The notes beneath the pieces were generated by a model. The model saw only the letters and a list, made by a program, of their open reading frames with translations. It did no database searches and was not told the DNA's origin. From the sequence record PX880098.1: a stretch of DNA of 44,688 nucleotides. One strand, 5' to 3'. A program made the position numbers and the translations under genes. Each line of letters opens with the position of its first letter. Position 1 is the first letter of the stretch. Shown one piece after another: positions 23,709-35,351 of this stretch. This DNA comes from a phage.

Positions 23709-23890
23709 TTCTTACCTTCGCTTTTCTTGAAACTGCACTTTATGTCCGGCAGCGTGTAGCACCGTGATTTTTCGTATTTACCGTTCGAGCTTACCAAAAC
23801 AAAGCTGTTGCCGTCTTTTGATATGTACTCGACAATAAAAGTATTGGATGTATGTACGCTGTATATTTCGTCTCCAACATTAAGCTTCAT
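23705..23890 (-). CDS. hypothetical protein (61 aa)
   Basis: ATGA-coupled ORF downstream of helicase gene. Confidence 0.5.
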   Translation of the reverse strand: MKLNVGDEIYSVHTSNTFIVEYISKDGNSFVLVSSNGKYEKSRCYTLPDIKCSFKKSEGKK

Positions 23891-26352
23891 TTCTTACCTC
23901 GTCTCTTCATGTAATTAAGCAATTCTTCCTGGACAGATTTCTTCTCGTCAGTGCGCGCGGCGACAACCTCATCCAGCGTGTCTTTAGCAACGATGTGGTA
24001 TAGGAACACAGGGCGCTCGTGACCCGCCTGTTTCTGGCGTACTGGGCCTATACGCTCAACAACCTGCAAATAGTGCTCAAGGTTCCAGCCTTGTGAAATG
24101 AATGCCAGATGATGCCCTCCGTCCTGTAAATTCAAACCATGGCCCGCTGACGCAGGATGCACGCATAATATTTCGATTTCCCCGCGGTTCCACGCTTCCA
24201 TCTGCTTATTACCTTTAACGCCTTTGGCAAACGCCTGCGCCTGCGGGAATCGCTTAAGGATGCGCTCCAGTTCGTGCTTGAACTGATAGGCCACTAGTAA
24301 CGGCGCACCCTGTAGCTCCTCAACAATGGACTCCAGAGCATCCAGTTTCGTGTCGTGTACTTTCTCCCAGTCTTTCGTTGCTTCGCCATCTGGCCCTGAT
24401 ACGTATACGGCACCGGATGCAATCTGCAGACACTTAGAGGTCTTCGCCGCAGCGTTAGCCGCTTCAACTTCTCCGCTCTCCAGTTCAGCAAATAACTTCT
24501 CCTCCATATCGATGTACGCCTGACGCGCTTTCTTCGGCAGGTCAATTTCAACCGGTACAATTATTGGCGCTTCACAACCAAACCACTCGGCAGCGTCAAT
24601 CGTGAGACTAATGTCCTTCATCTTCTGGTGAATTTCGTTATCCGCACCTGGGCGGGCGTGGTATTCGCGCGCCATAGCCGATTTGCCTTTCTGTACCGAG
24701 TTAAACCAGCGGTCGGTGAATGCTGTGTATGATGACCCCAGGCGCTCGCCAGCGTCGATAAACCAGTTCTGGCCCCACAAGTCCTTGAGGCCGTTTGGTG
24801 ACGGTGTACCGGTCAGATTGATGAAACGTTTAACATTACCGAACGCCACTTTGCTTAGTGCCTTTGCTCGCTTGCTTCCGCCAGAACGGCTGCGGAATGA
24901 TTTCAACTTCGTGCTCTCATCGGCAACAATAACCGTAAAAGGCCAGTCGTCTTTGCCGTAGTAGTCAATCAGCCACTCGATTACCTCATAGTTCGTGCAC
25001 ACCACGTTAGCGTCGGACTCCAGCGCCGCGATGCGGCGCTTCTCTGAACCGGTCGCATCTACGACGCGCAGACAAGGGAAACCCCACTTAGTTTGTTCTG
25101 CCGGCCATGTGCCGGACGCAACACGCAACGGCGCAAGGATTAACACACGGTCGTCATCATTAAGTTGGCCGTTGCGGAACAGCCGATTGAGAACCCACAT
25201 CGTCGAGCTTGTGTTGTGCGTTACGGTGAAGTCGCCTAATAGAAACCGGTGGTCACCGTCGATAGTGAAGCCGTAATAATCATCTACGCCGACCGGGGTT
25301 ATAGATTCTATTCCAACGTTAAGTACGTTTTTATTAATATTACGCTTCGGTAAATTCTGGTGGCGGCCACGCACGAAAGGCACCTCAGAAAAATCGCCTG
25401 ATACCGATACGCGGAAGTAATCCCCCCAAACATCAGTGTTTGCGCAACGCTTACGAGTTTTCTTCTTGTAAGCGGCGAAACCAAGAGAACGGCATAGATA
25501 GCAAAAATCATCAGCGAGTCGCTCGCTTACCGAAATCCAGTCAAAACCTGCTTTAGACAAATCACAATAACCGTCGCTATCCAGAAGCCCCGCCAGCAAT
25601 TCTAAACGTTGCTGCCGGTCGCCGCATTTGTAATTATGCGGTATATGCTTATGGTTCAAGACCCCCGCCGACCTCAGCGCGTGCGTAAGCCCGTGCTTCT
25701 TATTGCCAGTATTGCCGTAAGATATACTCCATGTAAGTCCTTCTTTTCGTATTTGCATCCCATTACGCGCTGCGTACGATTCAAGATACTCCCTTATTTC
25801 CTTTTCGTTTTCCCCAGATGTTATGGCTCCCGACGATGAGGTGCCATCACCAAGCCACAGCCCCATAAGGTACGGGGGCAATAAAGCATCGTCCTGATCT
25901 TTCCTCGGGAAATCGACAGGTACTCGCCAACCCTTAAGATACCCATTAGGTCCGGTTACATATTTCGGCAACTTAAGCCAGTCGCGGACGCTTATGTCGA
26001 AAACGGTATTATCCGGCCATGAACCCTTTGCTATCCCTGTAGTAGTTCGCAGTGATAATATATGGCTTTCGTTTACCGTATACGACTCTCCTTTTCGCGG
26101 TTTAACCTCGTACATCATCTCCCGGCCTCTACCGAGAGACAGTACATTTCTAGGCGTTGAATCTGGCCCCATAAGCACGTCACCGACGATGACGTCTTCT
26201 ACTTTCTTGGTCGTACCGTCAAACATAATAACTTCAGTCCCGCGTTTCAGGCACTTGCCGCTACCCATACTTGCCCAGATATTACAGCGCGGGTTCCGCA
26301 GCATGAACGAGGTCATGAGCTTTTGATAAGGCCTTCTAGTGAATTTACTCAT
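23887..26352 (-). CDS. SNF2-family helicase interrupted by an intein
   Basis: Walker A split as MGSGK|intein|TSS; DExx-like box VIVADESTKLK; NLTGTPSPNGLKDLW and GHGLNLQDGG helicase motifs. Confidence 0.75.
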   Translation of the reverse strand: MSKFTRRPYQKLMTSFMLRNPRCNIWASMGSGKCLKRGTEVIMFDGTTKKVEDVIVGDVLMGPDSTPRNVLSLGRGREMMYEVKPRKGESYTVNESHILSLRTTTGIAKGSWPDNTVFDISVRDWLKLPKYVTGPNGYLKGWRVPVDFPRKDQDDALLPPYLMGLWLGDGTSSSGAITSGENEKEIREYLESYAARNGMQIRKEGLTWSISYGNTGNKKHGLTHALRSAGVLNHKHIPHNYKCGDRQQRLELLAGLLDSDGYCDLSKAGFDWISVSERLADDFCYLCRSLGFAAYKKKTRKRCANTDVWGDYFRVSVSGDFSEVPFVRGRHQNLPKRNINKNVLNVGIESITPVGVDDYYGFTIDGDHRFLLGDFTVTHNTSSTMWVLNRLFRNGQLNDDDRVLILAPLRVASGTWPAEQTKWGFPCLRVVDATGSEKRRIAALESDANVVCTNYEVIEWLIDYYGKDDWPFTVIVADESTKLKSFRSRSGGSKRAKALSKVAFGNVKRFINLTGTPSPNGLKDLWGQNWFIDAGERLGSSYTAFTDRWFNSVQKGKSAMAREYHARPGADNEIHQKMKDISLTIDAAEWFGCEAPIIVPVEIDLPKKARQAYIDMEEKLFAELESGEVEAANAAAKTSKCLQIASGAVYVSGPDGEATKDWEKVHDTKLDALESIVEELQGAPLLVAYQFKHELERILKRFPQAQAFAKGVKGNKQMEAWNRGEIEILCVHPASAGHGLNLQDGGHHLAFISQGWNLEHYLQVVERIGPVRQKQAGHERPVFLYHIVAKDTLDEVVAARTDEKKSVQEELLNYMKRRGKK
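25213..26253 (-). mobile_element. intein with LAGLIDADG homing endonuclease domain (347 aa)
   Basis: Begins with Cys after GSGK, ends THN followed by Thr; two LAGLIDADG-like motifs LMGLWLGDGTS and LAGLLDSDGY; C-terminal block FLLGDFTVTHN. Confidence 0.75.
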
Positions 26353-26939: not shown

Positions 26940-27071
26940 TCATTCCAGCACCCACAGATAAATTGCGACGAACATACCTAATACGGCGACAATCATGCCG
27001 TATTGACCCTCGTGACAGTAGACCCCGGCGGCAAATCCCGCCAGTACCGCGATAATCAGTTTACTTAGCAT
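26940..27071 (-). CDS. small hydrophobic protein (43 aa), absent from ORF track
   Basis: ATG overlaps the 3-prime end of the polymerase gene; sequence MLSKLIIAVLAGFAAGVY...FVAIYLWVLE predicts a membrane hairpin. Confidence 0.35.
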   Translation of the reverse strand: MLSKLIIAVLAGFAAGVYCHEGQYGMIVAVLGMFVAIYLWVLE

Positions 27072-29301
27072 AACGCATCATCTCCGCGCCTTCTGCTACA
27101 AGAGGGAACCCCTCGGCCCATTCAGGTAATTCGCACATCAACCGCTCAAGTTCAGCCACCGTGTACTCGGGGGTATCTGGTGTCTCGCAGATAATCTCAT
27201 CGTGGACATGAAGTACAATCGGATAACCGTTTGCTTCTACGTTCAGCAGCGCGTTGGCCAGCAAATCACGGCACAACGCCTGGGTGCAGTTTTCCACCAG
27301 TTTACCGGAGTAGGTGTACTGGAAGCCCCACTGGCGGGTTAGCTGATTTTCGCCCTGGTACTTGATGCGCACGTTAGTAGACACCTTTCCGTCTTCATCT
27401 GTCTCTTTCGATACACTTAACCCGACGCCAGGGTATGACATAACGCGACCCGACGGCAACGTCATGCGCAGCCACCAACCAGCGACCTTGTTGCCGTTGT
27501 TGTCTGTTTCTACGTTGCGCGAAAACTTAACCCCCCGCGGCCCTGCGGTGAACTCTTTACCCGGATTGCGGATAGCCGCCATAGCCGCGTCTTCAATATC
27601 GCGCCAGAATTGGACTATTGCAGGATTAGCTTCCCGGTACATGCGCTTTAAAGCGTCACAGGTACGCCAGACTTTCTTATCAAGAATATACGATGGTCTG
27701 TCATCCTTTTCACCAGGACGTGGGGGGCGCTTGGCTTCCTGAATACGCGCCCACTCATAGCCTCGCGCGGTAGCAGCCCAGATATGGTCCGGGAAAGTCC
27801 CGTCTAAAGTGCAGGTCATATCGTTCAAATCAAGACCTAAGTTTTTAGCAAACGTGACGAAAGCACCGACGCCCCCCGCGTAGCCGAGGCCCAGAACCAT
27901 TGCTTTGGCTATTTGTCTTTGGTCCTTTGTTACGGCTTCATACGCAACGTTGAACACCGTTGATGCGAGTTTCTTGTACACATCAACCCCGTTTACAAAT
28001 ACTTCGATTAAATCGTCTTCTCCGGCCAGCCACGCAAGCCCGCGGCCCTCGACGTTGGAGTAATCGGCAACAACAAACTTATGCCCTGCTTCCGGTATTA
28101 TGCAGCTGCGCACCGTCGACGCCGTTAGTTTGGCTACATCGAAACGGCGATGTGCGCGTCCTTTAAGCAGAAGGTCTATTCCGTAGGACAATGGGTGCGT
28201 TACTCGCCACCAGTCCTTCTCTGACATCCAGTCGTAACGTACTTTCTTCTTTTCATTCTTCGGGTCGTCGTGATAGTACCCGCGCGCCAGGTTCTGTGGC
28301 TGAAAGCCTTTACCCGCAAACCGCAATGTACGCTTAGCCCCACCATACTGGATGCAGCCACGGCGGCGGTCGTCCGACGAGCGGCCCAACAGCAGCGGGT
28401 TATATTTCGTTGACGCAGTGGACGCGGCGCCGAGGCGCATTTCGATAATCGTGCGGGCGTCGTCCGGTAAATCATCATCTGCTAGCAGGTCATTCAGCAT
28501 CGACTTCTGTGCGTTATGGATGCGGTGCGCTGGCGCAAGTTCACGCAGAATCGGCAAGAAGTCTTTACCAGTAAGTGAGCCGCCGTATTTACGTTGGGCT
28601 TCTTCCTGTAACTGCGCCTTGTGTTTCTCTACCGCTTCAATCGCTGCTTCTGCAAGCGCGACGTCAACCTTAAACCCGCGGTCATTGATTAACTGGTCCA
28701 GCTCCAGTACACGGTCTTCGAACTCGGAGTTACCCCACCGCGGCAGCTTATGGAAGACTTCGCGCATCGCAGTGATGTCGCTAACGGCGTACTTGATGAA
28801 CAGCGACCACTCATCCGGGTGCGTTTCCGCGGTGTAGCGTCTGATTTTGTAGTTCTTCGGTGTCGGTTTAGAGAAACGCTGAATCAGTGCCTTGCCGCGT
28901 TTGTCTTTCGCGTTGTCGGCGGATACACCAAGCACTTCACACAAGGCGTCAAGTGAACCGGGCAGCGCGTGACGAAAAGCCCAAATCATCGTATCAATAG
29001 TGTTGCTTACCGGAATATCAAAACCCCAGCAGTGCTTCATGATGAGCCTGTCGAACATTGAGCCGTTGTGCCACACCATCTTGATGCGGCTGTTTGGCTT
29101 AACCAGTCGGCGTAGCGCGCGGTGCAAATCGCCCGGCATATCGCTGCCGTCAGTGCAATCCCATACCTGCACAGGCTCGTCGTCAAAAGCATAGGTACAG
29201 ATAAGCACTTCTGTAGTTGGGTGTTCGGCGTAAGCGTAAGAACCGACTTTCTTTAAATCGGCTTCGGAGAATGTTTCAAAGTCTAAGAACAGGTAACTCA
29301 T
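27061..29301 (-). CDS. DNA polymerase, family A, with 3-prime-5-prime exonuclease domain
   Basis: Exo I motif LDFETFS; motif A DYSNVEGRGLA, motif B RQIAKAMVLGLGYAGG, motif C HVHDEII. Confidence 0.85.
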   Translation of the reverse strand: MSYLFLDFETFSEADLKKVGSYAYAEHPTTEVLICTYAFDDEPVQVWDCTDGSDMPGDLHRALRRLVKPNSRIKMVWHNGSMFDRLIMKHCWGFDIPVSNTIDTMIWAFRHALPGSLDALCEVLGVSADNAKDKRGKALIQRFSKPTPKNYKIRRYTAETHPDEWSLFIKYAVSDITAMREVFHKLPRWGNSEFEDRVLELDQLINDRGFKVDVALAEAAIEAVEKHKAQLQEEAQRKYGGSLTGKDFLPILRELAPAHRIHNAQKSMLNDLLADDDLPDDARTIIEMRLGAASTASTKYNPLLLGRSSDDRRRGCIQYGGAKRTLRFAGKGFQPQNLARGYYHDDPKNEKKKVRYDWMSEKDWWRVTHPLSYGIDLLLKGRAHRRFDVAKLTASTVRSCIIPEAGHKFVVADYSNVEGRGLAWLAGEDDLIEVFVNGVDVYKKLASTVFNVAYEAVTKDQRQIAKAMVLGLGYAGGVGAFVTFAKNLGLDLNDMTCTLDGTFPDHIWAATARGYEWARIQEAKRPPRPGEKDDRPSYILDKKVWRTCDALKRMYREANPAIVQFWRDIEDAAMAAIRNPGKEFTAGPRGVKFSRNVETDNNGNKVAGWWLRMTLPSGRVMSYPGVGLSVSKETDEDGKVSTNVRIKYQGENQLTRQWGFQYTYSGKLVENCTQALCRDLLANALLNVEANGYPIVLHVHDEIICETPDTPEYTVAELERLMCELPEWAEGFPLVAEGAEMMRYAK

Positions 29302-29359: not shown

Positions 29360-29986
29360 TTAGCGGCGGCGACGTTCGCGGCGCGGTGCCCCATCTTCTT
29401 CGTCGTCTTCCAGGTCATTGACGCTTGCTGCGACTTTAGAACCGCCGAACGCTTTACCTTCACCAACGTATTTAATTGCCAGAAGGTTAACACCGAGAAC
29501 TTTATATTTCTGGCTGAACCAGATTTCGACGCTTGCGTTAGCGACACAGCCGCTGTAAACCTGTTCGCCTTCAATCTGTTCTCCGTCTACATTGAAGTCC
29601 TGCTCTACCTGAGTCTCACCTTTTTTAGAGGTTACAATCAGCGGCTGTTTCTGTGCCTTCGCTTTGAAGTAGAAGCCTTCCGGGAAGTCTTCAAACGGAT
29701 TGTCGCGCTCAGCAATGTCTTTAATCGCGCATTTATCCATGTGCTTACCTTCACCGTAGTTGGACTTCATCCACTTCTCGGCAGCGGCTGCACCTAACGC
29801 TTCTTCAACTACAGCGTACACAGTGTCGTAGAGCGCATCGATTTGAGCATGGTCTGACGGCAGGATGATAGTCGCGCTGTACTGGCCTTTAGTGATGGAG
29901 CCATCATCGTTTTCACGGTCTTTTTCGCGTTCAAATACGTTAACCCATGCAGTGTTTACTTTACGCAGATTTAATTTCAGTCCCAT
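29360..29986 (-). CDS. putative single-stranded DNA-binding protein (T7 gp2.5-like organisation)
   Basis: 208 aa; position between exonuclease and polymerase; C-terminal acidic stretch DLEDDEED followed by basic RRERRRR; assignment tentative. Confidence 0.4.
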   Translation of the reverse strand: MGLKLNLRKVNTAWVNVFEREKDRENDDGSITKGQYSATIILPSDHAQIDALYDTVYAVVEEALGAAAAEKWMKSNYGEGKHMDKCAIKDIAERDNPFEDFPEGFYFKAKAQKQPLIVTSKKGETQVEQDFNVDGEQIEGEQVYSGCVANASVEIWFSQKYKVLGVNLLAIKYVGEGKAFGGSKVAASVNDLEDDEEDGAPRRERRRR

Positions 29987-30041: not shown

Positions 30042-30070
30042 ACTATAATAGCTAACTATTCAGGTGTCAA
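30042..30070 (-). promoter_or_regulatory. sigma70-like promoter, family A (TTGACA-N17-TATAGT)
   Basis: Minus-strand reading TTGACAcctgaatagttagctatTATAGT; near-identical to the copy at 32491. Confidence 0.6.
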
Positions 30071-30074
30071 CACT

Positions 30075-31316
30075 TTATTCTAAATCTTCTTCACTAACCT
30101 GATTCCACTCAGGCCGTTTGTCGTCTGCCGTTGCGACGCATGGCGCGCCTGGCTTACGTGTAATGAAGTCTTTCAGTTCTTCTTCGGGTATTACTTTAAC
30201 AGCTTCTGTCGGCGTCATGAGCACTTGCTTCATTAGTGCTATGCCATACTCGCCAGCCACTTTCTCTGTATCTTTCCACGCACGATTGCCCATCTTACCT
30301 TCAACCAGCTTGTACCCCGGAACTTTCTTACCGGAATGCAAAGCGGCGGCCATCGCTTTCTCAACCTTGTCGATGTGCTGGCGCAACAACGGCAACTTCT
30401 CATACTCAGCTACGAGTTGCTCTGGTGTAAGTTCCAGTGCAAAGTCGTCTTCCAGTTCTTCCGCCAGTACAGAATTAACCGTTTTTGTACGCGCTGCGCA
30501 CTGTTCAGAGAAACGACACCACTGGCATCCATCGACCGACGGCTTGAAGTCAGACGCTTTCAGGTTCTTTTTACCGCGAGAATAAGCATCAAGGGCTAAC
30601 AATGCACGTTTCTGTGCGAACTTAGCGAACAGTTCCAGACCTTCAACCGAGATGTCCCACTCGGACGCCCCGCCAGCATACGGCTGGAAGATGACCAGAC
30701 GAACCACGGTGATGTTATAACGTCTCTTGAGTCGGCGATAGACACCGAGAGCATAAAGCATAAGCTGCTTGTTTTCTTTCGCTTCAACACGATGTCGTCC
30801 AGTTTTCAGGTCGCCGACAATGAGCATGTGCTCGTCTGTGTTTGCCAGTTCCTGAACGGCAACAAGGTCAGCGGTTCCGAACGTCTCAACGCCTTCATAC
30901 CCGGGATGCAACACCTCAGTAAGATTGACGCGCATTTCCAGCTTGGCGTAAGTCGCTACGTCGATAATCGCTTTGCAATAGTCTGTGTACTTGCGCACCT
31001 GCTCAATCATGTCAGCCGTAATCAGTACCGCGCCTTTCATCTGGCTGATTAGCGCCTTAATCTGGCCTTTACCCTCGTCCAGCACATAAGCGCCGAGTTC
31101 GCGCTCTAGCGGCAGCGCAGTGCCTTTGATGTACTGATTTAAATGGACCTCAGCTATAGTGTGCATAGCTGTGCCTAATACCGCAGATTTACCTGACGTG
31201 TTAGGGATATCTTTTTCACAGGCCAGCGATGCGGCGCAGCTTAACCACTTTTTAGCACCTGACGGCGACAGTAAGGCGTGCACATCGTTATTGCCGCCGC
31301 GTTCTTTTAAAATCAT
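30075..31316 (-). CDS. Cas4/RecB-like PD-(D/E)xK exonuclease with Fe-S cysteine cluster
   Basis: Nuclease core LIVGDLKTG; N-terminal Cys (LSCAASLAC) plus C-terminal CQWCRFSEQC as in Cas4-type nucleases; C-terminus SEEDLE. Confidence 0.6.
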   Translation of the reverse strand: MILKERGGNNDVHALLSPSGAKKWLSCAASLACEKDIPNTSGKSAVLGTAMHTIAEVHLNQYIKGTALPLERELGAYVLDEGKGQIKALISQMKGAVLITADMIEQVRKYTDYCKAIIDVATYAKLEMRVNLTEVLHPGYEGVETFGTADLVAVQELANTDEHMLIVGDLKTGRHRVEAKENKQLMLYALGVYRRLKRRYNITVVRLVIFQPYAGGASEWDISVEGLELFAKFAQKRALLALDAYSRGKKNLKASDFKPSVDGCQWCRFSEQCAARTKTVNSVLAEELEDDFALELTPEQLVAEYEKLPLLRQHIDKVEKAMAAALHSGKKVPGYKLVEGKMGNRAWKDTEKVAGEYGIALMKQVLMTPTEAVKVIPEEELKDFITRKPGAPCVATADDKRPEWNQVSEEDLE

Positions 31317-31453
31317 TCCGTAATCTCCTCAATCCACGCGCAATCAAAACTGTCTGCGTCAAGTTCGTCTAGCATGTATTCAGCATCAGCGTAAGTTAGG
31401 TATCGACTGTGCTCGTAATCTTTATCGCCAATTGAGTACATAACCGCAAACAT
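31313..31453 (-). CDS. small acidic protein (46 aa), absent from ORF track
   Basis: SD GGGAGG before ATG 31453; stop overlaps exonuclease start (ATGA); overlaps the end of ORF 31422-31721 by about 30 nt, so uncertain. Confidence 0.3.
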   Translation of the reverse strand: MFAVMYSIGDKDYEHSRYLTYADAEYMLDELDADSFDCAWIEEITE

Positions 31454-31721
31454 TCCGTACCTCCCACTGGTCAATTAAATGCCGCGTCTGGTGCTGGCAG
31501 TGCATAGCCCACCCATACATCGATTCGAAGACATAAAAGTCAGGTTTGGCGAAAGTCGTGCGCTTAATCTGCAACACGTGGCGGCCTATATCTTTAGGCC
31601 GCGGCACTTTGCCTAAGTATGCCATCTCTTCCATCTGGTGCGCACCGGACGGCGCACGCAACAGCCACAACGCCTCTGTGTTATCTCGCCCGTCTACGGC
31701 GCGGTAGAGTTGGTAAATCAT
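31422..31721 (-). CDS. hypothetical protein (99 aa)
   Basis: ATGA-coupled ORF in replication operon. Confidence 0.5.
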   Translation of the reverse strand: MIYQLYRAVDGRDNTEALWLLRAPSGAHQMEEMAYLGKVPRPKDIGRHVLQIKRTTFAKPDFYVFESMYGWAMHCQHQTRHLIDQWEVRNVCGYVLNWR

Positions 31722-31927
31722 TCTGCAACCTCACATTCGCCGGCGGCCAAGCTAAAATAGAACACATCATCATCACACTCAGACCTAATATTTAACCCAA
31801 ATTTGTCAAATTCTGTCTCGCTAACATCGAAGCCCTTACCAGCCCAATCATATCCATTGACTTCCACTGGAAAATTAATACTCGACAGTTCGGCGTATCC
31901 GTCGTCGTTCAGTAGCCTTATTTTCAT
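31718..31927 (-). CDS. hypothetical protein (69 aa, acidic)
   Basis: ORF in replication operon. Confidence 0.5.
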   Translation of the reverse strand: MKIRLLNDDGYAELSSINFPVEVNGYDWAGKGFDVSETEFDKFGLNIRSECDDDVFYFSLAAGECEVAE

Positions 31928-31970
31928 ATTTCCGACCCTCAGTTAAAGCGGCCCGAAAGCCGCCGGATAA

Positions 31971-32459
31971 TTATTCTTCTTCGAAATACTTGTTCTTGAT
32001 TGCCGTCAGGCGTTCCAGGTACTCCGCCAGGTCTTCGTCTTTAATCGCGGCAATCTTCATTTTCTTACCAGTGAACTCTTCCAGCAGTTCATCAGAATCA
32101 TCGCACGCGGCATCGCTCGGACCTTCGTTAATAGCGTCATCGATAGCCTGAATCTGGTCACGAAGAGACTGGTAATCTACTTCTTCCTGCTCTGGCGCTG
32201 GCTCCTCTGCTTTAGCTTTACGCGGCTTGCGTTTTGACTTCTCTTCTTCTTCCGGTTTAGTGTCAACGATGTCTTCACCTTCGACCGGAATTTCTTTTGA
32301 AGGTTTAGTTAAAGCCTCTTTTACGCTTACACCCTGCAACTTACAAAACTCAGCAAAATGTTCTGGTGAGCCAATCACAGGTTCTTTCACACTGTTCGCG
32401 GCAATCAGTTCATGCGCAACTACGAAACGTTCCAGTAATACTAAGAATTTCTCTAACAT
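31971..32459 (-). CDS. hypothetical acidic protein (162 aa)
   Basis: First gene after promoter 32491-32520; conserved leader TAAACGAGAGGAGAGAAACAA before ATG. Confidence 0.55.
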   Translation of the reverse strand: MLEKFLVLLERFVVAHELIAANSVKEPVIGSPEHFAEFCKLQGVSVKEALTKPSKEIPVEGEDIVDTKPEEEEKSKRKPRKAKAEEPAPEQEEVDYQSLRDQIQAIDDAINEGPSDAACDDSDELLEEFTGKKMKIAAIKDEDLAEYLERLTAIKNKYFEEE

Positions 32460-32490
32460 TTGTTTCTCTCCTCTCGTTTAGTATGGGCTA

Positions 32491-32520
32491 ACTATAATAG
32501 CTAACTATTCATGTTGTCAA
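32491..32520 (-). promoter_or_regulatory. sigma70-like promoter, family A (TTGACA-N18-TATAGT)
   Basis: Minus-strand reading TTGACAacatgaatagttagctatTATAGT; divergent from the HTH gene. Confidence 0.6.
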
Positions 32521-32584
32521 TGGGCTTTTCTAAAATAATTAATATGGTACTATTCACATATCAACTGACTAAGGAGTAATTGAC

Positions 32585-32800
32585 ATGCAACCATCTGAGC
32601 TAGGTATCCGTGTAGAACAACGCCGCAAAGAACTCGGCATCTCCCAGCGCCGTCTGGCTGTCCTGGCCGGCGTTTCCCAGGGCGCGATTAACCAACTGGC
32701 TCTCGGGGTAACTCAGGACGTCCGCCCGGCAACTCTGTTTAAACTGGCGGAAGTGCTGCAAGTAGACGCCAAGTGGCTGGCGTTCGGTGAAGGGGCTTAA
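32585..32800 (+). CDS. XRE-family HTH transcriptional regulator (Cro-like)
   Basis: 71 aa; HTH ISQRRLAVLAGVSQGAINQLALG; only plus-strand gene in the replication block, divergent from a family A promoter. Confidence 0.7.
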   Translation: MQPSELGIRVEQRRKELGISQRRLAVLAGVSQGAINQLALGVTQDVRPATLFKLAEVLQVDAKWLAFGEGA

Positions 32801-32816
32801 CGCCCCTTTCTTTTTG
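32790..32816 (+). terminator. intrinsic terminator after HTH gene
   Basis: GGGGC-TTAAC-GCCCC followed by TTTCTTTTTG. Confidence 0.6.
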
Positions 32817-32817
32817 C

Positions 32818-35100
32818 CTATTCCAAATCCTCCTCTGTCACCACCAGCATTTCATTAGGTTCGTATATTGTCTTCGGCCTTAGTCTATCCCCTATTCTTT
32901 CAGGTATACGATACGTTCGCGGCACTACTTCGCCGTTAGCGTCACAGCCTAGCATTAGTTCGCCATCTTTCAGCATTTTATCAAGATGGGTGTTAGTCAC
33001 AGAAAAGTCACCGGAACGGGCAACTATCTGCTGCTGAGTAAAACCGCGACCTGTGTCATCTGACTGTTGCAGGTCTTCCAGTGCCGAAAGTATTGACTCC
33101 TTTCTCCCTTCATCCCTGCCGCGTTTAACTTCTTCCTTTACTTTTTCTTTACCTTTATCGGATAGCCCTTCTTCCCGCTCCTTCTCCTCGTCAGTTTTGA
33201 ACGGCTCGAAGCCCCACGGCATCAATACAAGCGCTTTGTGCGGTTCAGGCAGGTCGAGGTTTACGATTGTGCCGTATTCCTCTGTGCTACCCCGGAACTC
33301 AACCGCGCGGTACTCTTTCGGCGGCGGGGCTTCGCGGAACTGTACGGACTCAAGCACCATGCCAACCGTTTTCTGCTGAGGCCCGTGCTTAAATTTTGAG
33401 TGGTATACGTTTATCTGACGGTCGGTAGCGCGTTCGATTGTCAGCTCTACGTCAACGCCCGCGTACAGCGCCCCACTGCCACGGGCTTTCTTTCCACCCT
33501 TCGGCGTATGGTGGACGACGCCTACCGCGGCTTTAGTCGCGTCGCGTACTTCTTTCAGGATGGCGATGACTTTACCCATGCCGATTGCCGTTGATGAACT
33601 GTTCTCGTCGAACTTATCAATCGTCAGGGCCAGGGTCTGGTTAAGGGTGTCGAACGCGACCATGCCAATTGGCTCGTCGCCAGCAGTTTCTCGCATCAGC
33701 TTAATCAGGCTTTTCAGTTTTCCGACTTCACCCATATCGATGACGTGTACATAATCTTTACCTTCCACGCCATATTTAGCCGCGAGCGCGTCAATACGTG
33801 TGCGGGTGGCGGCACCGCCCTCCCCGTCGATATAGAAATGGTGGCAACGCTGGGTGTCCGCCCCTGCAAACCTGTATCCGGCGGCGCTGAGGTACATCAT
33901 CCCCAGCGTATAAAACGATTTGTACGTACCGGATTCCCCAACAATATCCCAGATGCAATCTGACGGCATGTACCCTTCAACGACGAAATCAGCCTTTACC
34001 GGTTCCGGCAACTCGCCCTCCTCTGAGTCTTCGTCATCTTCCAGGTCGTCAAGGCTGCATGAAACGGACTCCCGCGCACCCCAACCTATAGCCTCTGCAA
34101 CCTCACTGAACGGAAGCCCGGTCGCGTCGCACGCGTATTTCCACACCTCTTTCGGTGACATGCCTTCGGTCGCCGTAATGTCGGTGTCGTGAATCATGGT
34201 TACGTTCGGCGCTTCGTACCCCTCGCGCGGGAAGCACAGCAGGAAGTCATCTGGCCTCGGCGTCGGGTCGCTGTATTTTTCTGCGTGTTCCGGCGTAGCT
34301 GGCATCTTAAGGCCGCGCGGCGTCATGATACCGCCGTATTCAAACGCCAGCGCCTCAAACGCATCGGTAAACGCTGTGCGCAGTTCTTCCGGTATCTGGT
34401 AATCCGACGCGCTGCTAACGTCGACGGCTGGGATGCCTTCCAGTAACTCGTCCGGGTCAATCAGGTCGTTGCGACGAGACCAGATAACCTGAGAGCCGAC
34501 CGGCGGCAGGTACATCGGCTGCGACAGAGTGAACCCGCTGCGGTCAGCACCCATGCCTTTAAAGAAGTGCTCCAGCAATCCGTGACGAACGCGGATGATG
34601 TCACCGCCTTCAACCGGACGACCCAGAGGCATGACTACGCGAAAGCGCGGTGACTCATCGGTATGTGATGCCGTGGTGTAGAGACACATAGCCCGACGGC
34701 TGCGCTTAACCAGACGCACTGCTTCCTGGTACTCTTCCGGTGTTGCACTGTCGAAGTCCAGATACGCCAGCGACGATTTGCTTACAGACGCGTCACAGCG
34801 ATAAAAGAAACCTTTGCGCGCTTGCTTAAAGTCACCGGTTTCCGGGTCTTTTACGGTGCTGTGCGTTGAGTCGCACGCGGCAGTGATATAGCCAGGCGCT
34901 GTCTTCGGGTTAACCCCGTCTCGAATGGCATCGAGCGGCTGTATTAACTCTTTCAGGTCGTCCAGTGTTGCCGTGTGCGTGGTTCTGACGTTTATATCCT
35001 TTTTCTCAGCCCGCGCGTTGCGACGTGACCACGAGTAGGATAAAATTACATCGGACATGTTGTATATTCCTTCAGCAAGTAATTTGGCCTCGGCGTTCAC
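32818..35100 (-). CDS. primase-helicase (AEP-type primase domain fused to P-loop NTPase)
   Basis: AEP-like DxD motif AYLDFDSATPEEY and SH-TDE motif in N-terminal half; Walker A GESGTYKS in C-terminal half; C-terminus TEEDLE. Confidence 0.6.
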   Translation of the reverse strand: MNAEAKLLAEGIYNMSDVILSYSWSRRNARAEKKDINVRTTHTATLDDLKELIQPLDAIRDGVNPKTAPGYITAACDSTHSTVKDPETGDFKQARKGFFYRCDASVSKSSLAYLDFDSATPEEYQEAVRLVKRSRRAMCLYTTASHTDESPRFRVVMPLGRPVEGGDIIRVRHGLLEHFFKGMGADRSGFTLSQPMYLPPVGSQVIWSRRNDLIDPDELLEGIPAVDVSSASDYQIPEELRTAFTDAFEALAFEYGGIMTPRGLKMPATPEHAEKYSDPTPRPDDFLLCFPREGYEAPNVTMIHDTDITATEGMSPKEVWKYACDATGLPFSEVAEAIGWGARESVSCSLDDLEDDEDSEEGELPEPVKADFVVEGYMPSDCIWDIVGESGTYKSFYTLGMMYLSAAGYRFAGADTQRCHHFYIDGEGGAATRTRIDALAAKYGVEGKDYVHVIDMGEVGKLKSLIKLMRETAGDEPIGMVAFDTLNQTLALTIDKFDENSSSTAIGMGKVIAILKEVRDATKAAVGVVHHTPKGGKKARGSGALYAGVDVELTIERATDRQINVYHSKFKHGPQQKTVGMVLESVQFREAPPPKEYRAVEFRGSTEEYGTIVNLDLPEPHKALVLMPWGFEPFKTDEEKEREEGLSDKGKEKVKEEVKRGRDEGRKESILSALEDLQQSDDTGRGFTQQQIVARSGDFSVTNTHLDKMLKDGELMLGCDANGEVVPRTYRIPERIGDRLRPKTIYEPNEMLVVTEEDLE

Positions 35101-35117
35101 CGCGTCGGGGCTTTCTT

Positions 35118-35351
35118 TTATTCCAGGTCTTCTAAAGTAGCGGTCATTCCGCGAACTTCAGCAACAGCGCTATATTTCCCGCCCACATTTTTCACGACAC
35201 CGGATTTAACCAGTACTCGTAACGACGCTTCAATAATGGCGGAACTATAGTACTTAAAATAACTACGGCGCAAGTCGATAACACTGCACGACCCTTTTTT
35301 ACGTGTTAACGAAACTACAGCTGTGAATACCCGTGACTGAAACTCGGTCAT
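35118..35351 (-). CDS. hypothetical small protein (77 aa), possible winged-helix
   Basis: ATGA-coupled to upstream HTH ORF; C-terminus TATLEDLE. Confidence 0.5.
   Translation of the reverse strand: MTEFQSRVFTAVVSLTRKKGSCSVIDLRRSYFKYYSSAIIEASLRVLVKSGVVKNVGGKYSAVAEVRGMTATLEDLE

Follow-up and report, generated by a model that had tools for sequence, protein, structure and literature searches.

A shared acidic C-terminal peptide on replication proteins of a Kagunavirus-like phage: conservation and candidate partners

In a Kagunavirus-like phage, three unrelated proteins of DNA replication and recombination end with the same acidic peptide, EDLE, directly before the stop codon. This raises the question of whether the ending is a coincidence, a by-product of DNA-level signals or a tag that is read by a common partner. 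In the following, the window denotes the whole stretch of 44,688 nucleotides that was analysed (PX880098.1).

The EDLE endings and their carriers

Re-translation of all three ORFs, which lie on the minus strand, confirmed their coordinates. The nuclease (DUF2800/RecB-family, Cas4-like; gene 30075-31316) ends in VSEEDLE (30078..30098), the primase-helicase (ORF 32818-35100, with the ATG at 35058 as the probable true start) in VTEEDLE (32821..32841), and p77, a 77-aa winged-helix protein (gene 35118-35351), in TATLEDLE (35121..35144). The first-pass annotation had claimed that three replication proteins end in EDLE and that their differing codons point to a conserved peptide instead of a DNA repeat, and both statements hold. 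The codons read gaa gaa gat tta gaa taa in the nuclease, gag gag gat ttg gaa tag in the primase-helicase and tta gaa gac ctg gaa taa in p77; since they differ among the three genes, the tails do not represent a DNA repeat.

The common ending of the three window proteins is not due to chance. Among 302 ORFs of at least 40 aa, only these three end in [DE][DE]L[DE]. As a null model, the last 15 residues of each likely gene (n=71) were permuted, such that each tail kept its own composition; one C-terminal 4-mer common to three proteins appeared once in 20,000 shuffles, and the same test over all 302 ORFs gave 16 cases in 5,000. The motif [DEN]DLE occurs five times in the gene set, compared to 0.79 expected occurrences and a maximum of 4 in 2,000 shuffles, and all five copies belong to replication proteins.

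Two of these [DEN]DLE copies, one in the linker of the primase-helicase and one in the gp2.5-like SSB, had been overlooked in the first-pass annotation. The linker copy, SLDDLEDDEDSEEGE (aa 349-363; 34012..34056, minus strand), is located before the AAA_25 helicase domain and contains SLDDLEDDED. It is kept as C[STD]x[DE][DE]DL[EAGD] in the primases of the Kagunavirus, Jerseyvirus-like and L051-L058 lineages and is doubled in L039; in the primase comparison, no such copy was found in the Dhillonvirus-like lineage. The SSB copy, SVNDLEDDEED (aa 188-198; 29393..29425, minus strand; gene 29360-29986), immediately follows the OB fold and belongs to the proximal tail. Of 71 SSB homologues, 66 show a pattern of this kind, and in the alignment with the DUF2815 crystal construct 4jg2, SVNDLEDD falls on its ADDFTTIEDD end.

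The nuclease matches DUF2800 (PF10926, E=3e-67) and PDDEXK_1 (PF12705) and has a RecB-type fold, with Foldseek matches to AdnA, Dna2, MGME1, AddAB and Cas4. Within its four-cysteine cluster, C...CxxCx5C, the residues C27, C267 and C273 are invariant among homologues and C264 is nearly so. The tail lies beyond the domain, because Pfam DUF2800 spans aa 13-402. Matches of the primase-helicase are AAA_25 and phrog_3228 (aa 15-760), those of the SSB Enc34_ssDNA-bd (PF10991, E=1e-15), phrog_112 'Gp2.5-like' (E=8e-41) and 4jg2. For p77, AlphaFold2 predicts an H-H-H-hairpin winged-helix topology (mean pLDDT 89), i.e., three helices (H3-19, H24-30, H37-50) and then a beta-hairpin wing (E53-56, E59-66). 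Its best PDB matches, the LexA DNA-binding domain, the MotA N-terminal domain and the RPA32 winged helix (TM 0.6-0.7, all E>0.001), are generic winged-helix matches only. The pLDDT of p77 residues 61-77, tail included, is 76 and 67 in the last two blocks, and that of nuclease residues 401-413 is 76-87, with a short helix at 409-412. Both tails score below their cores (above 90) but do not reach the values under 50 that free, disordered tails usually show; they may therefore pack in cis to some extent.

Conservation of the tail peptide and its lineage-specific versions

The first-pass annotation had proposed to check whether orthologues in related phages keep the tail. They do so in all 69 primases, all 23 p77 proteins and 72 of 74 nucleases. 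In the primases, which share 25-99% identity, the core [ST]-[DE]-x-D-L is found throughout, even where a non-homologous N-terminal domain has replaced the original one, and every p77 homologue ends in [LP]EDLE. The nucleases show the strict tail pattern in 70 of 74 cases, and D-L is truly missing in 2 of 74. The tail is better conserved than its flanking sequence: it is kept at 25-47% identity, where the preceding residues have diverged. In L051-L058, the genes for SSB and polymerase flank genes for proteins of 62-67 aa, which terminate in TATDEDLE or DATDEDLE and resemble p77 solely over the last 11 residues; judged by these sequences, the motif occurs on unrelated scaffolds. In the DUF2800 family as a whole, the last 15 aa carry a net charge of -3.2 versus -0.44 in internal windows, and an acid-aromatic motif is present in 66 of 146 representatives versus 11 expected, which marks the acidic tail as a family-wide trait on comparative grounds.

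The codons of the tail might also serve a purpose at the DNA level. In the arrangement GAGGAGGAT-TTGGA-ATGA they would provide a Shine-Dalgarno sequence, followed by a spacer and an overlapping start for the next gene, and the peptide would be incidental. Such an arrangement is present in about half of the relatives, among them phage Bas73. When downstream ORFs of 40 aa or more are counted, an ATGA overlap with the next ORF occurs in 24 of 42 nuclease homologues, 22 of them with the SD-like GAGGAT, and in about 14 of 48 primase homologues, 12 of these 14 with GAGGAT. However, the other 18 nuclease homologues, which have a TAA stop and no overlap, keep the peptide unchanged, and 16 of these encode it with GAAGAT, which is not SD-like; the tails of other lineages (DDEDDDEV, DDFDEL) lack SD-like coding. 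In the window, the three tails are followed by TAA, TAG and TAA without any ATGA overlap; the coupling cassette, an SD-like sequence placed 5-9 nt before a start codon that overlaps the stop, is absent at all three, and the nuclease uses GAA GAA. A near-consensus sigma-70-type promoter (30042..30070, minus strand; 11 of 12 hexamer matches) is located 5 nt beyond the nuclease stop, so translational coupling is not needed here, and a terminator-like hairpin (32789..32809), common to the convergent HTH_3 gene 32585-32800, directly follows the primase-helicase stop. Coupling as the origin of the tail motif is thus contradicted for this window, as no coupled gene follows any of the three stops, and we regard it as an extremely improbable explanation of the tails in general. 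As far as the homologous sequences tell, selection acts on the tail peptide and not on the DNA.

Other lineages of phages with the duf2800-gp2.5-polA module also have common tails, each in its own version (DDEDDDEV, EFEELE, DDFDxL). In Klebsiella phage KPN N137, the primase ends in DDEDDDEV, the nuclease in DDEDDDDEV and the SSB in GDEDDDV. Scapp has EEFEELE on the primase and SDFENLE on the nuclease, and Javan639 DDDYDFLD on the primase and DDDDDFLN on the SSB. Nuclease and SSB, respectively, end in AEDDFDKL and AEDDFDEL in Staphylococcus phage SBK1, in SAFDALGDED and DVFDELGDED in Achromobacter phage AchV4, and in DDFDDLD and DDFDELE in RcGingersnap. For a set of lineages that were picked by hand, four of them related, the within-genome matching of nuclease and primase tails was reached in 0 of 20,000 permutations (p < 5e-5), and that of nuclease and SSB tails gave a permutation p of about 0.005. 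The primases of GB2A, CL31, Logan and RcGingersnap lack the common tail, so sharing among all three proteins is not universal in the more distant lineages. Enterobacterial phages alone use at least three different versions (EEDLE, EFEELE, DDEDDDEV), which suggests that the receptor is encoded by the phage and co-evolves with the tails.

A docking model and its alternatives

Since the tail is kept in relatives and differs between phage lineages, the shared acidic peptide most likely serves, by analogy with the T7 replisome, as a common plug for a single partner encoded by the phage. More specifically, we consider it rather probable that the EDLE tails are this phage's version of a short linear docking motif, a copy of the SSB tail, which binds the OB groove of the SSB and/or the polymerase. 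The motif would consist of the core [ST]-[DE]-x-D-L followed by negative charge, supplied by the C-terminal carboxylate or by additional Asp/Glu residues. In duf2800-gp2.5-polA phages, the OB fold of the gp2.5-like SSB is directly followed by an acidic tail that has a single hydrophobic anchor, and a copy of this peptide is borne by the nuclease, by small accessory proteins and in many cases by the primase-helicase. As copies of the SSB tail, these clients could occupy the same site as the tail itself. Two candidate sites are suggested by known structures and interactions. In crystals of gp2.5 and of DUF2815 proteins such as Enc34 ORF6, the C-terminus of one molecule rests in the concave beta-sheet of an adjacent one, burying 842 A2 (PMC5686142), and in T7 the gp2.5 and gp4 tails bind basic patches on gp5 (bioRxiv 10.64898/2026.05.20.726333). 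The OB fold of gp2.5 is also bound by the T7 tails. The corresponding sites here would be the ssDNA-binding groove in the concave beta-sheet of the SSB and a basic patch on the phage polymerase. This family A DNA polymerase with a 3'-5' exonuclease domain (27061..29301, minus strand; Pfam DNA_pol_A, phrog_17) ends in RYAK, bears no tail in any lineage examined and, with 61-65% identity, is the best-conserved protein of the module across the D-L lineages. We infer that resection nuclease, helicase-primase and p77 may be tethered to one SSB/polymerase hub, where they could hand ssDNA to the SSB or swap by competition; with two motif copies per subunit, the helicase-primase would contribute 12 copies per hexamer, if a hexamer is formed.

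That the proteins share a docking tag comparable to the tails of T7 gp4 and gp2.5 had already been proposed in the first-pass annotation, and the comparative support for this idea is good, as the tails co-vary within genomes and selection appears to operate at the peptide level. The same annotation named the Arg-rich C-terminal end of the SSB, PRRERRRR (29363..29386, minus strand), as the partner, a suggestion that finds no support as far as a general receptor is concerned. The acidic tails would then bind this end electrostatically, with the usual SSB polarity reversed. The charges are indeed complementary, and the basic end is kept in every lineage with a D-L tail (Kagunavirus, Jerseyvirus-like, L051-L058, Dhillonvirus-like). 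However, SVNDLEDDEED immediately precedes the basic end, so the SSB itself bears the tag, and this acidic copy, 2-3 residues upstream, would compete in cis. The basic end is missing from the SSBs of KPN N137, SBK1, AchV4, GB2A, Logan and Javan639, yet nuclease and SSB tails are alike in the first three of these phages, and in KPN N137 and AchV4 the primase has the common tail, too. The strictly kept Leu and the preceding Ser/Thr moreover suggest a shaped pocket and not plain charge. Altogether, the basic end appears unlikely as the receptor, while the tails may make a local electrostatic contact with it.

Each tail could instead act as a DNA mimic that folds onto the DNA-binding surface of its own protein and inhibits it, without any common partner. 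Acidic SSB tails are known to compete with ssDNA for the OB fold of the same protein (PMC10359462), the Enc34 ORF6 tail influences the discrimination of ssDNA and dsDNA (PMC5686142), and the tail pLDDT of the nuclease and p77, moderate and not very low, fits as well. This would, however, demand a surface recognizing the same sequence, Ser/Thr-acid-acid-Asp-Leu, on a RecB-type nuclease, a RecA-type helicase, a winged helix and 62-aa proteins alike, and the within-genome co-variation of non-homologous proteins fits a shared partner and not independent cis contacts; a purely intramolecular role is therefore doubtful in our opinion. Reading by a host factor, either a protease or chaperone that takes the tail as a degron or a replication protein deceived by mimicry of the host SSB tip, seems to us very unlikely. 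The motif does resemble the SSB-Ct principle of acidic residues with a hydrophobic anchor, but it is unlike DDDIPF and unlike the clamp motif QL[SD]LF. Known C-terminal degrons are non-polar, which counts against a host degron. The tails of host SSBs are known as interaction hubs (e.g., PMC3632105 and PMC3401449); a conserved host receptor would, however, not be expected to go along with three tail versions in phages whose enterobacterial hosts are identical or close relatives.

Likeness to known systems

The preferred reading, a common plug for an SSB and/or polymerase site, finds its closest counterpart in T7. Both systems comprise a gp2.5-like SSB, a family A polymerase without tail and a bifunctional primase-helicase, and in both the SSB and helicase-primase of one genome bear the same acidic peptide with a single hydrophobic anchor. 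The T7 ends compared are ...EDGDF in gp2.5 and ...NDTDF in gp4, and gp6 has no tail; stimulation of the gp6 exonuclease requires the gp2.5 tail (PMC4124056). In contrast to T7, where the essential anchor is the terminal Phe, the anchor in the window is a Leu at -2 with a terminal Glu, although Phe does occur in more distant lineages with the module (DDFDEL, DFLN). Further differences are the internal position of the SSB copy, which is followed by the Arg-rich end, the second copy within the primase-helicase linker, and the presence of the putative docking tag on a RecB-type nuclease and on small accessory proteins.

The SSBs of the Enc34 ORF6/DUF2815 type (PDB 4jg2) belong to the same family, and their proximal acidic tail docks in trans on a neighbouring SSB. 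The respective study (PMC5686142) considered the SSB's own tail alone and did not report the peptide on a nuclease or primase of the same phage. Tails of the Enc34 type consist of a long acidic stretch with a final V (WDEDEV, deduced from a published primer). The bacterial SSB tip (DDDIPF) is alike in principle, as an acidic flexible peptide with a hydrophobic anchor serves many genome-maintenance proteins. There, however, only the SSB bears the tip and the clients bear pockets, whereas here the clients bear the peptide; the sequences also differ, and the window SSB ends in PRRERRRR with an internal motif. The pairing of a resection nuclease with an adjacently encoded ssDNA-annealing or -binding protein is shared with lambda Exo-Beta, RecE-RecT and T7 gp6-gp2.5. 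In lambda, a folded C-terminal domain of Beta contacts Exo (PDB 6m9k), whereas the nuclease of the window would provide a short peptide.

Composition and shared tail of the replication module

The replication and recombination module of the window lies between 27 and 35.5 kb, with its genes on the minus strand. It comprises genes for a family A DNA polymerase (27061-29301), a gp2.5-like SSB / annealing protein (29360-29986; PF10991, phrog_112), a DUF2800 PD-(D/E)XK nuclease (30075-31316), a primase-helicase (32818-35100; AAA_25, phrog_3228) and a 77-aa protein, here p77 (35118-35351; phrog_5169, function unknown for this PHROG), together with several small ORFs and an excisionase-like HTH protein. 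The region shows about 90% identity over 7 kb with Kagunavirus-type E. coli phages (Bas73, ULINTec2, NTEC3) and is matched by 449 phage records, mostly from Salmonella and Escherichia phages.

The AlphaFold2 model of the nuclease (pLDDT 90.8) has its matches among nuclease domains of the RecB family, in AdnA, Dna2, MGME1, AddAB and Cas4, and four cysteines are kept in the family, C27 and C264-x2-C267-x5-C273; the label "Cas4-like exonuclease" from the first-pass annotation is therefore a fair one. p77 is predicted to be a winged-helix protein, and a fold search with it returned generic winged-helix matches only, without a specific function. For the primase-helicase, the mechanical start is GTG 35100. 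Both the PHROG profile and the Bas73 annotation begin at ATG 35058 (MSDVILSY), so that the protein probably has 746 aa rather than 760 aa. An SNF2-type DNA helicase (23887-26352, minus strand) has 821 aa versus 474 aa in Bas73; at residues 34-305 it contains an intein-like insert, in which Hint and LAGLIDADG homing endonuclease domains are recognised. In several relatives the polymerase has about 1,032 aa, a length that points to an insert in this protein too.

Three proteins of the module were initially noted to end in EDLE by way of different codons. Translation gives the same ends, i.e., VSEEDLE for the nuclease, VTEEDLE for the primase-helicase and TATLEDLE for p77, and not only the tail codons but also the stop codons differ among the three genes. 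Such an ending occurs in just these 3 of the 302 ORFs of the window. With shuffling confined to the 15 C-terminal residues of each protein, which is a conservative null, a terminal 4-mer common to three proteins arose in 1 of 20,000 trials, and chance sharing is thereby ruled out. Two further copies had been overlooked: SLDDLEDDEDSEEGE in the primase-helicase linker ahead of the helicase domain, and SVNDLEDDEED in the SSB, right after the OB fold and just ahead of the basic end PRRERRRR. Across the gene set of the window, [DEN]DLE is observed five times (0.79 expected), and all five sites lie within the nuclease, the primase-helicase, p77 and the SSB.

Conservation and lineage versions of the tail

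The first-pass annotation had asked whether orthologs keep the tail. We scored the core [ST]-[DE]-x-D-L, with 0-3 residues after it, in 74 IMG/VR loci plus Bas73, and found it in the primases, the p77 homologues and nearly all nucleases. All 69 primase-helicases carry it at identities of 25-99%, including sets with a replaced N-terminal domain (the distant forms read ATDDDLKD and ASDEDLNS), as do all 23 p77 homologues. The strict pattern is present in 70 of 74 nucleases; the exceptions are one TAEDLE, one end with four extra residues and two real losses, namely an L-to-S change and a truncated gene. Between lineages D-L is unchanged, while the ten residues preceding the motif have diverged. 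The SSB copy is found in 66 of 71 homologues. The primase linker copy occurs in three of the four D-L lineages (Kagunavirus, Jerseyvirus-like, L051-L058 and Dhillonvirus-like) and is duplicated in one locus.

In the loci L051-L058, small genes lie between those for SSB and polymerase, and their products of 62-67 aa have MTATDEDLE or DATDEDLE at the C-terminus; their likeness to p77 is confined to the last 11 residues, and otherwise they are unrelated to it. Some minor features were seen in the same set. The duplicated linker motif is a tandem one at residues 328-345 of the primase-helicase of the Jerseyvirus-like locus L039 (DEEDLADEEDLADEE). A 70-aa ORF in L019 (11209-11421), which may or may not be a gene, likewise ends in ...KKEDLE and overlaps the nuclease 3' end in another frame. 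In the Dhillonvirus-like, L051-L058 and Scapp lineages (L051-L074, L076-L077) the SSB tail is built of repeated Lys/Arg and Asp/Glu blocks in alternation, e.g., (KPRKRRKPRDDEDEDDDEDE)n, whose repeat number differs among close relatives.

As a homologue search with the nuclease gave identities of at least 94% only, the distant survey made use of a representative library, with 146 full-length representatives of DUF2800. Their last 15 residues have a mean net charge of -3.2, compared with -0.44 for internal windows (n = 146), and 66 of the 146 carry an acid-aromatic motif in the last 25 residues, where 11 are expected. The lineages themselves were surveyed by tblastn against a phage collection, in which roughly 1,470 phage records have a DUF2800 gene, and in 12 annotated regions of related phages, and the tails of 11 annotated phages of other lineages were compared. 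In most of these 11, tails are alike within a genome and unlike between lineages. The fullest set is that of Klebsiella phage KPN N137, with primase ...FDDEDDDEV, nuclease ...DDEDDDDEV, SSB ...GDEDDDV, a 130-aa protein ...SEEDDV and SNF2 helicase ...WDDEDD. Nuclease and SSB share their form in Staphylococcus phage SBK1 (...AEDDFDKL, ...AEDDFDEL...), Achromobacter phage AchV4 (...SAFDALGDED..., ...DVFDELGDED...) and Rhodobacter phage RcGingersnap (...DDFDDLD, ...DDFDELE...), primase and nuclease in Serratia phage Scapp (...EEFEELE, ...SDFENLE), and primase and SSB in Streptococcus phage Javan639 (...DDDYDFLD, ...DDDDDFLN).

Permuting within-genome against across-genome pairs, for lineages that were hand-picked and in part related, gave 0 of 20,000 permutations for nuclease versus primase tails and p of about 0.005 for nuclease versus SSB tails. 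The primases of GB2A, CL31, Logan and RcGingersnap do not have the shared tail, and none was found on the polymerase in any lineage examined. Corynebacterium phage CL31, whose shared [DN]VFxxI is weak, yielded no PolA in the 18.8 kb examined and may represent a lineage with nuclease and SSB but no PolA. Given tail sharing within genomes and versions by lineage, EDLE would seem to represent, in its D-L form, the enterobacterial variant of an acid-acid-hydrophobic-acid motif found throughout the family. The principal place of this motif is the gp2.5-like SSB, in its proximal tail.

Peptide versus DNA signal, and flanking promoters

The tail codons GAG GAG GAT TTG GAA TGA are also readable as a Shine-Dalgarno sequence, a spacer and ATGA, that is, as a translational-coupling cassette, and about half of the relatives (L001-L075) do use nuclease or primase tail codons as SD plus ATGA start. 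Among 42 nuclease homologues, 24 have an ATGA overlap with a downstream ORF, 22 of them with GAGGAT; the remaining 18 have no overlap and a TAA stop, mostly with GAAGAT (16 of 18). The encoded peptide is the same in all. For the window we reject this reading: a near-consensus promoter begins 5 nt after the nuclease stop, a terminator-like hairpin comes after the primase stop, and the probable primase start lies 60 nt past the p77 stop. A DNA repeat or RBS signal as the cause of EDLE in the window is ruled out by the codons and these flanking elements, and relatives keep the peptide without an overlapping downstream gene. Since the stops in the window lack coupled starts and the same peptide is found in homologues with or without overlap, we conclude from the sequences that the peptide is what is under selection, with RBS use overlaid secondarily in some genomes. 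The relatives provide a clear case of dual coding constraint, with GAGGAT where there is overlap, GAAGAT where there is none, and the peptide unchanged.

The promoter after the nuclease stop (30042-30070, minus strand), ahead of the SSB and polymerase genes, has a counterpart at 32491-32520 (minus strand) ahead of a gene for a 162-aa protein. Both are near-consensus sigma-70-type promoters with TTGACA, a 17-18 nt spacer and TATAGT (11 of 12 matches), and both have the identical spacer TGAATAGTTAGCTAT, a possible operator for the neighbouring repressor-like gene of HTH_3 type (32585-32800).

A proposed docking role

T7 is the nearest understood system, and there gp2.5 (...EDGDF) and gp4 (...NDTDF) share acidic tails. 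The gp5 polymerase has two basic patches to which gp4 tails bind and for which the gp2.5 tail competes (bioRxiv 10.64898/2026.05.20.726333), and gp2.5 stimulates the gp6 exonuclease only with its tail present (PMC4124056). In crystals of Enc34 ORF6, two other DUF2815 proteins and gp2.5, C-termini lie in the concave beta-sheet of neighbouring molecules, burying 842 A2 (PMC5686142); SVNDLEDD of the window aligns with the end of the DUF2815 construct 4jg2. On this basis we interpret the ends of nuclease, primase-helicase and p77 as probable copies of the SSB tail that would share its docking site or sites, whether these lie in the SSB groove, on the polymerase or on both. A single hub would in this way tether the winged-helix protein, the helicase-primase and the resection nuclease, and competition for the site could lead to hand-off or exchange. 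We infer binding, the identity of the receptor and hand-off alike; SSB and polymerase are both candidate receptors, between which we make no choice. Two weak indications in the sequences suggest that the receptor is phage-encoded: enterobacterial phages use at least three tail versions, and the polymerase is the best-conserved protein of the module across the four D-L lineages (61-65% identity).

A shared docking tag, as the first-pass annotation proposed by analogy with T7, is favoured by the sharing, conservation and co-variation of the tails. Against it counts the anchor, which here is Leu at position -2 and in T7 a terminal Phe. The AlphaFold2 pLDDT also counts against it: with 76-87 for the nuclease tail and 67-76 for the C-terminal blocks of p77 it is unlike that of a free disordered peptide, so that the tails may pack in cis. 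On balance we regard a docking tag as somewhat the better bet. The other part of the earlier proposal, in which the SSB end RRERRRR is the partner of the acidic tails, is probably not correct: the SSB itself bears the motif adjoining its basic end, and the same tail sharing exists in lineages without such an end. RRERRRR is nevertheless kept in the D-L lineages, and for this reason a local electrostatic role, which it may have, is kept in view. A clamp-binding motif and a degron were set aside on sequence mismatch.

The principle of tail docking is already known for bacterial SSB and T7; the present case varies it in which proteins bear the tag, in having internal copies, in its Leu anchor and in an SSB that ends in Arg. 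The duf2800-gp2.5-polA module has been named and the SSB tail described (PMC5686142). Our limited literature search found no report of a shared SSB tail peptide on nuclease, primase-helicase and accessory proteins, nor of lineage co-variation of tails. If the docking tag holds, it would give a simple wiring diagram of the replication/recombination machinery of Guernseyvirinae-type phages, which are common Salmonella and E. coli phages, some of them used in therapy, and likewise for the much larger set of duf2800-gp2.5-polA phages. The concept known from T7, in which several clients with tails are served by one polymerase/SSB hub, would be extended to a resection nuclease of RecB type and to small accessory proteins. 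A docking tag also predicts replisome membership for proteins of unknown function that bear the tail of their lineage, e.g., p77 and the 62-aa proteins, and suggests a compatibility rule for the mosaic exchange of replication genes between phages.

A more speculative joint reading, which we put forward tentatively and consider rather unlikely, is that a tail-mimicry code organises the whole duf2800-gp2.5-polA module, found in more than a thousand sequenced phages. Any protein acquiring the SSB-type acidic-hydrophobic peptide of its lineage, be it nuclease, primase-helicase, SNF2 helicase, winged-helix protein or tiny accessory protein, would be recruited to the SSB/polymerase hub. In the Guernseyvirinae-like group, an SSB tail with alternating acidic and Arg/Lys blocks and two motif copies per helicase subunit could form a multivalent electrostatic network that concentrates replication/recombination proteins on ssDNA, and version differences would hinder phages from exchanging modules.

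For the DUF2800 nuclease Bas14_0045 of the related BASEL-collection phage Bas14, the reported trigger of retron type IX, a C-terminal disordered region is described (bioRxiv 10.64898/2026.07.14.737667); tail function may therefore bear on infection sensing by this retron type.

Upstream of the nuclease, the 162-aa protein (31971-32459, minus strand; phrog_3127), which is conserved and of no known function, has an acidic-aromatic C-terminus, ...KNKYFEEE, that is itself conserved. Its positional counterparts next to other nuclease genes have the ends ...EEFYDAE (L051 group), ...TYFELED (Bas84) and ...YEEFDE (Scapp), and in KPN N137 and AchV4 the protein at this position bears the tail of its lineage (SEEDDV, DDDMLA). 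The 162-aa protein may belong to the clients of this hub as well.
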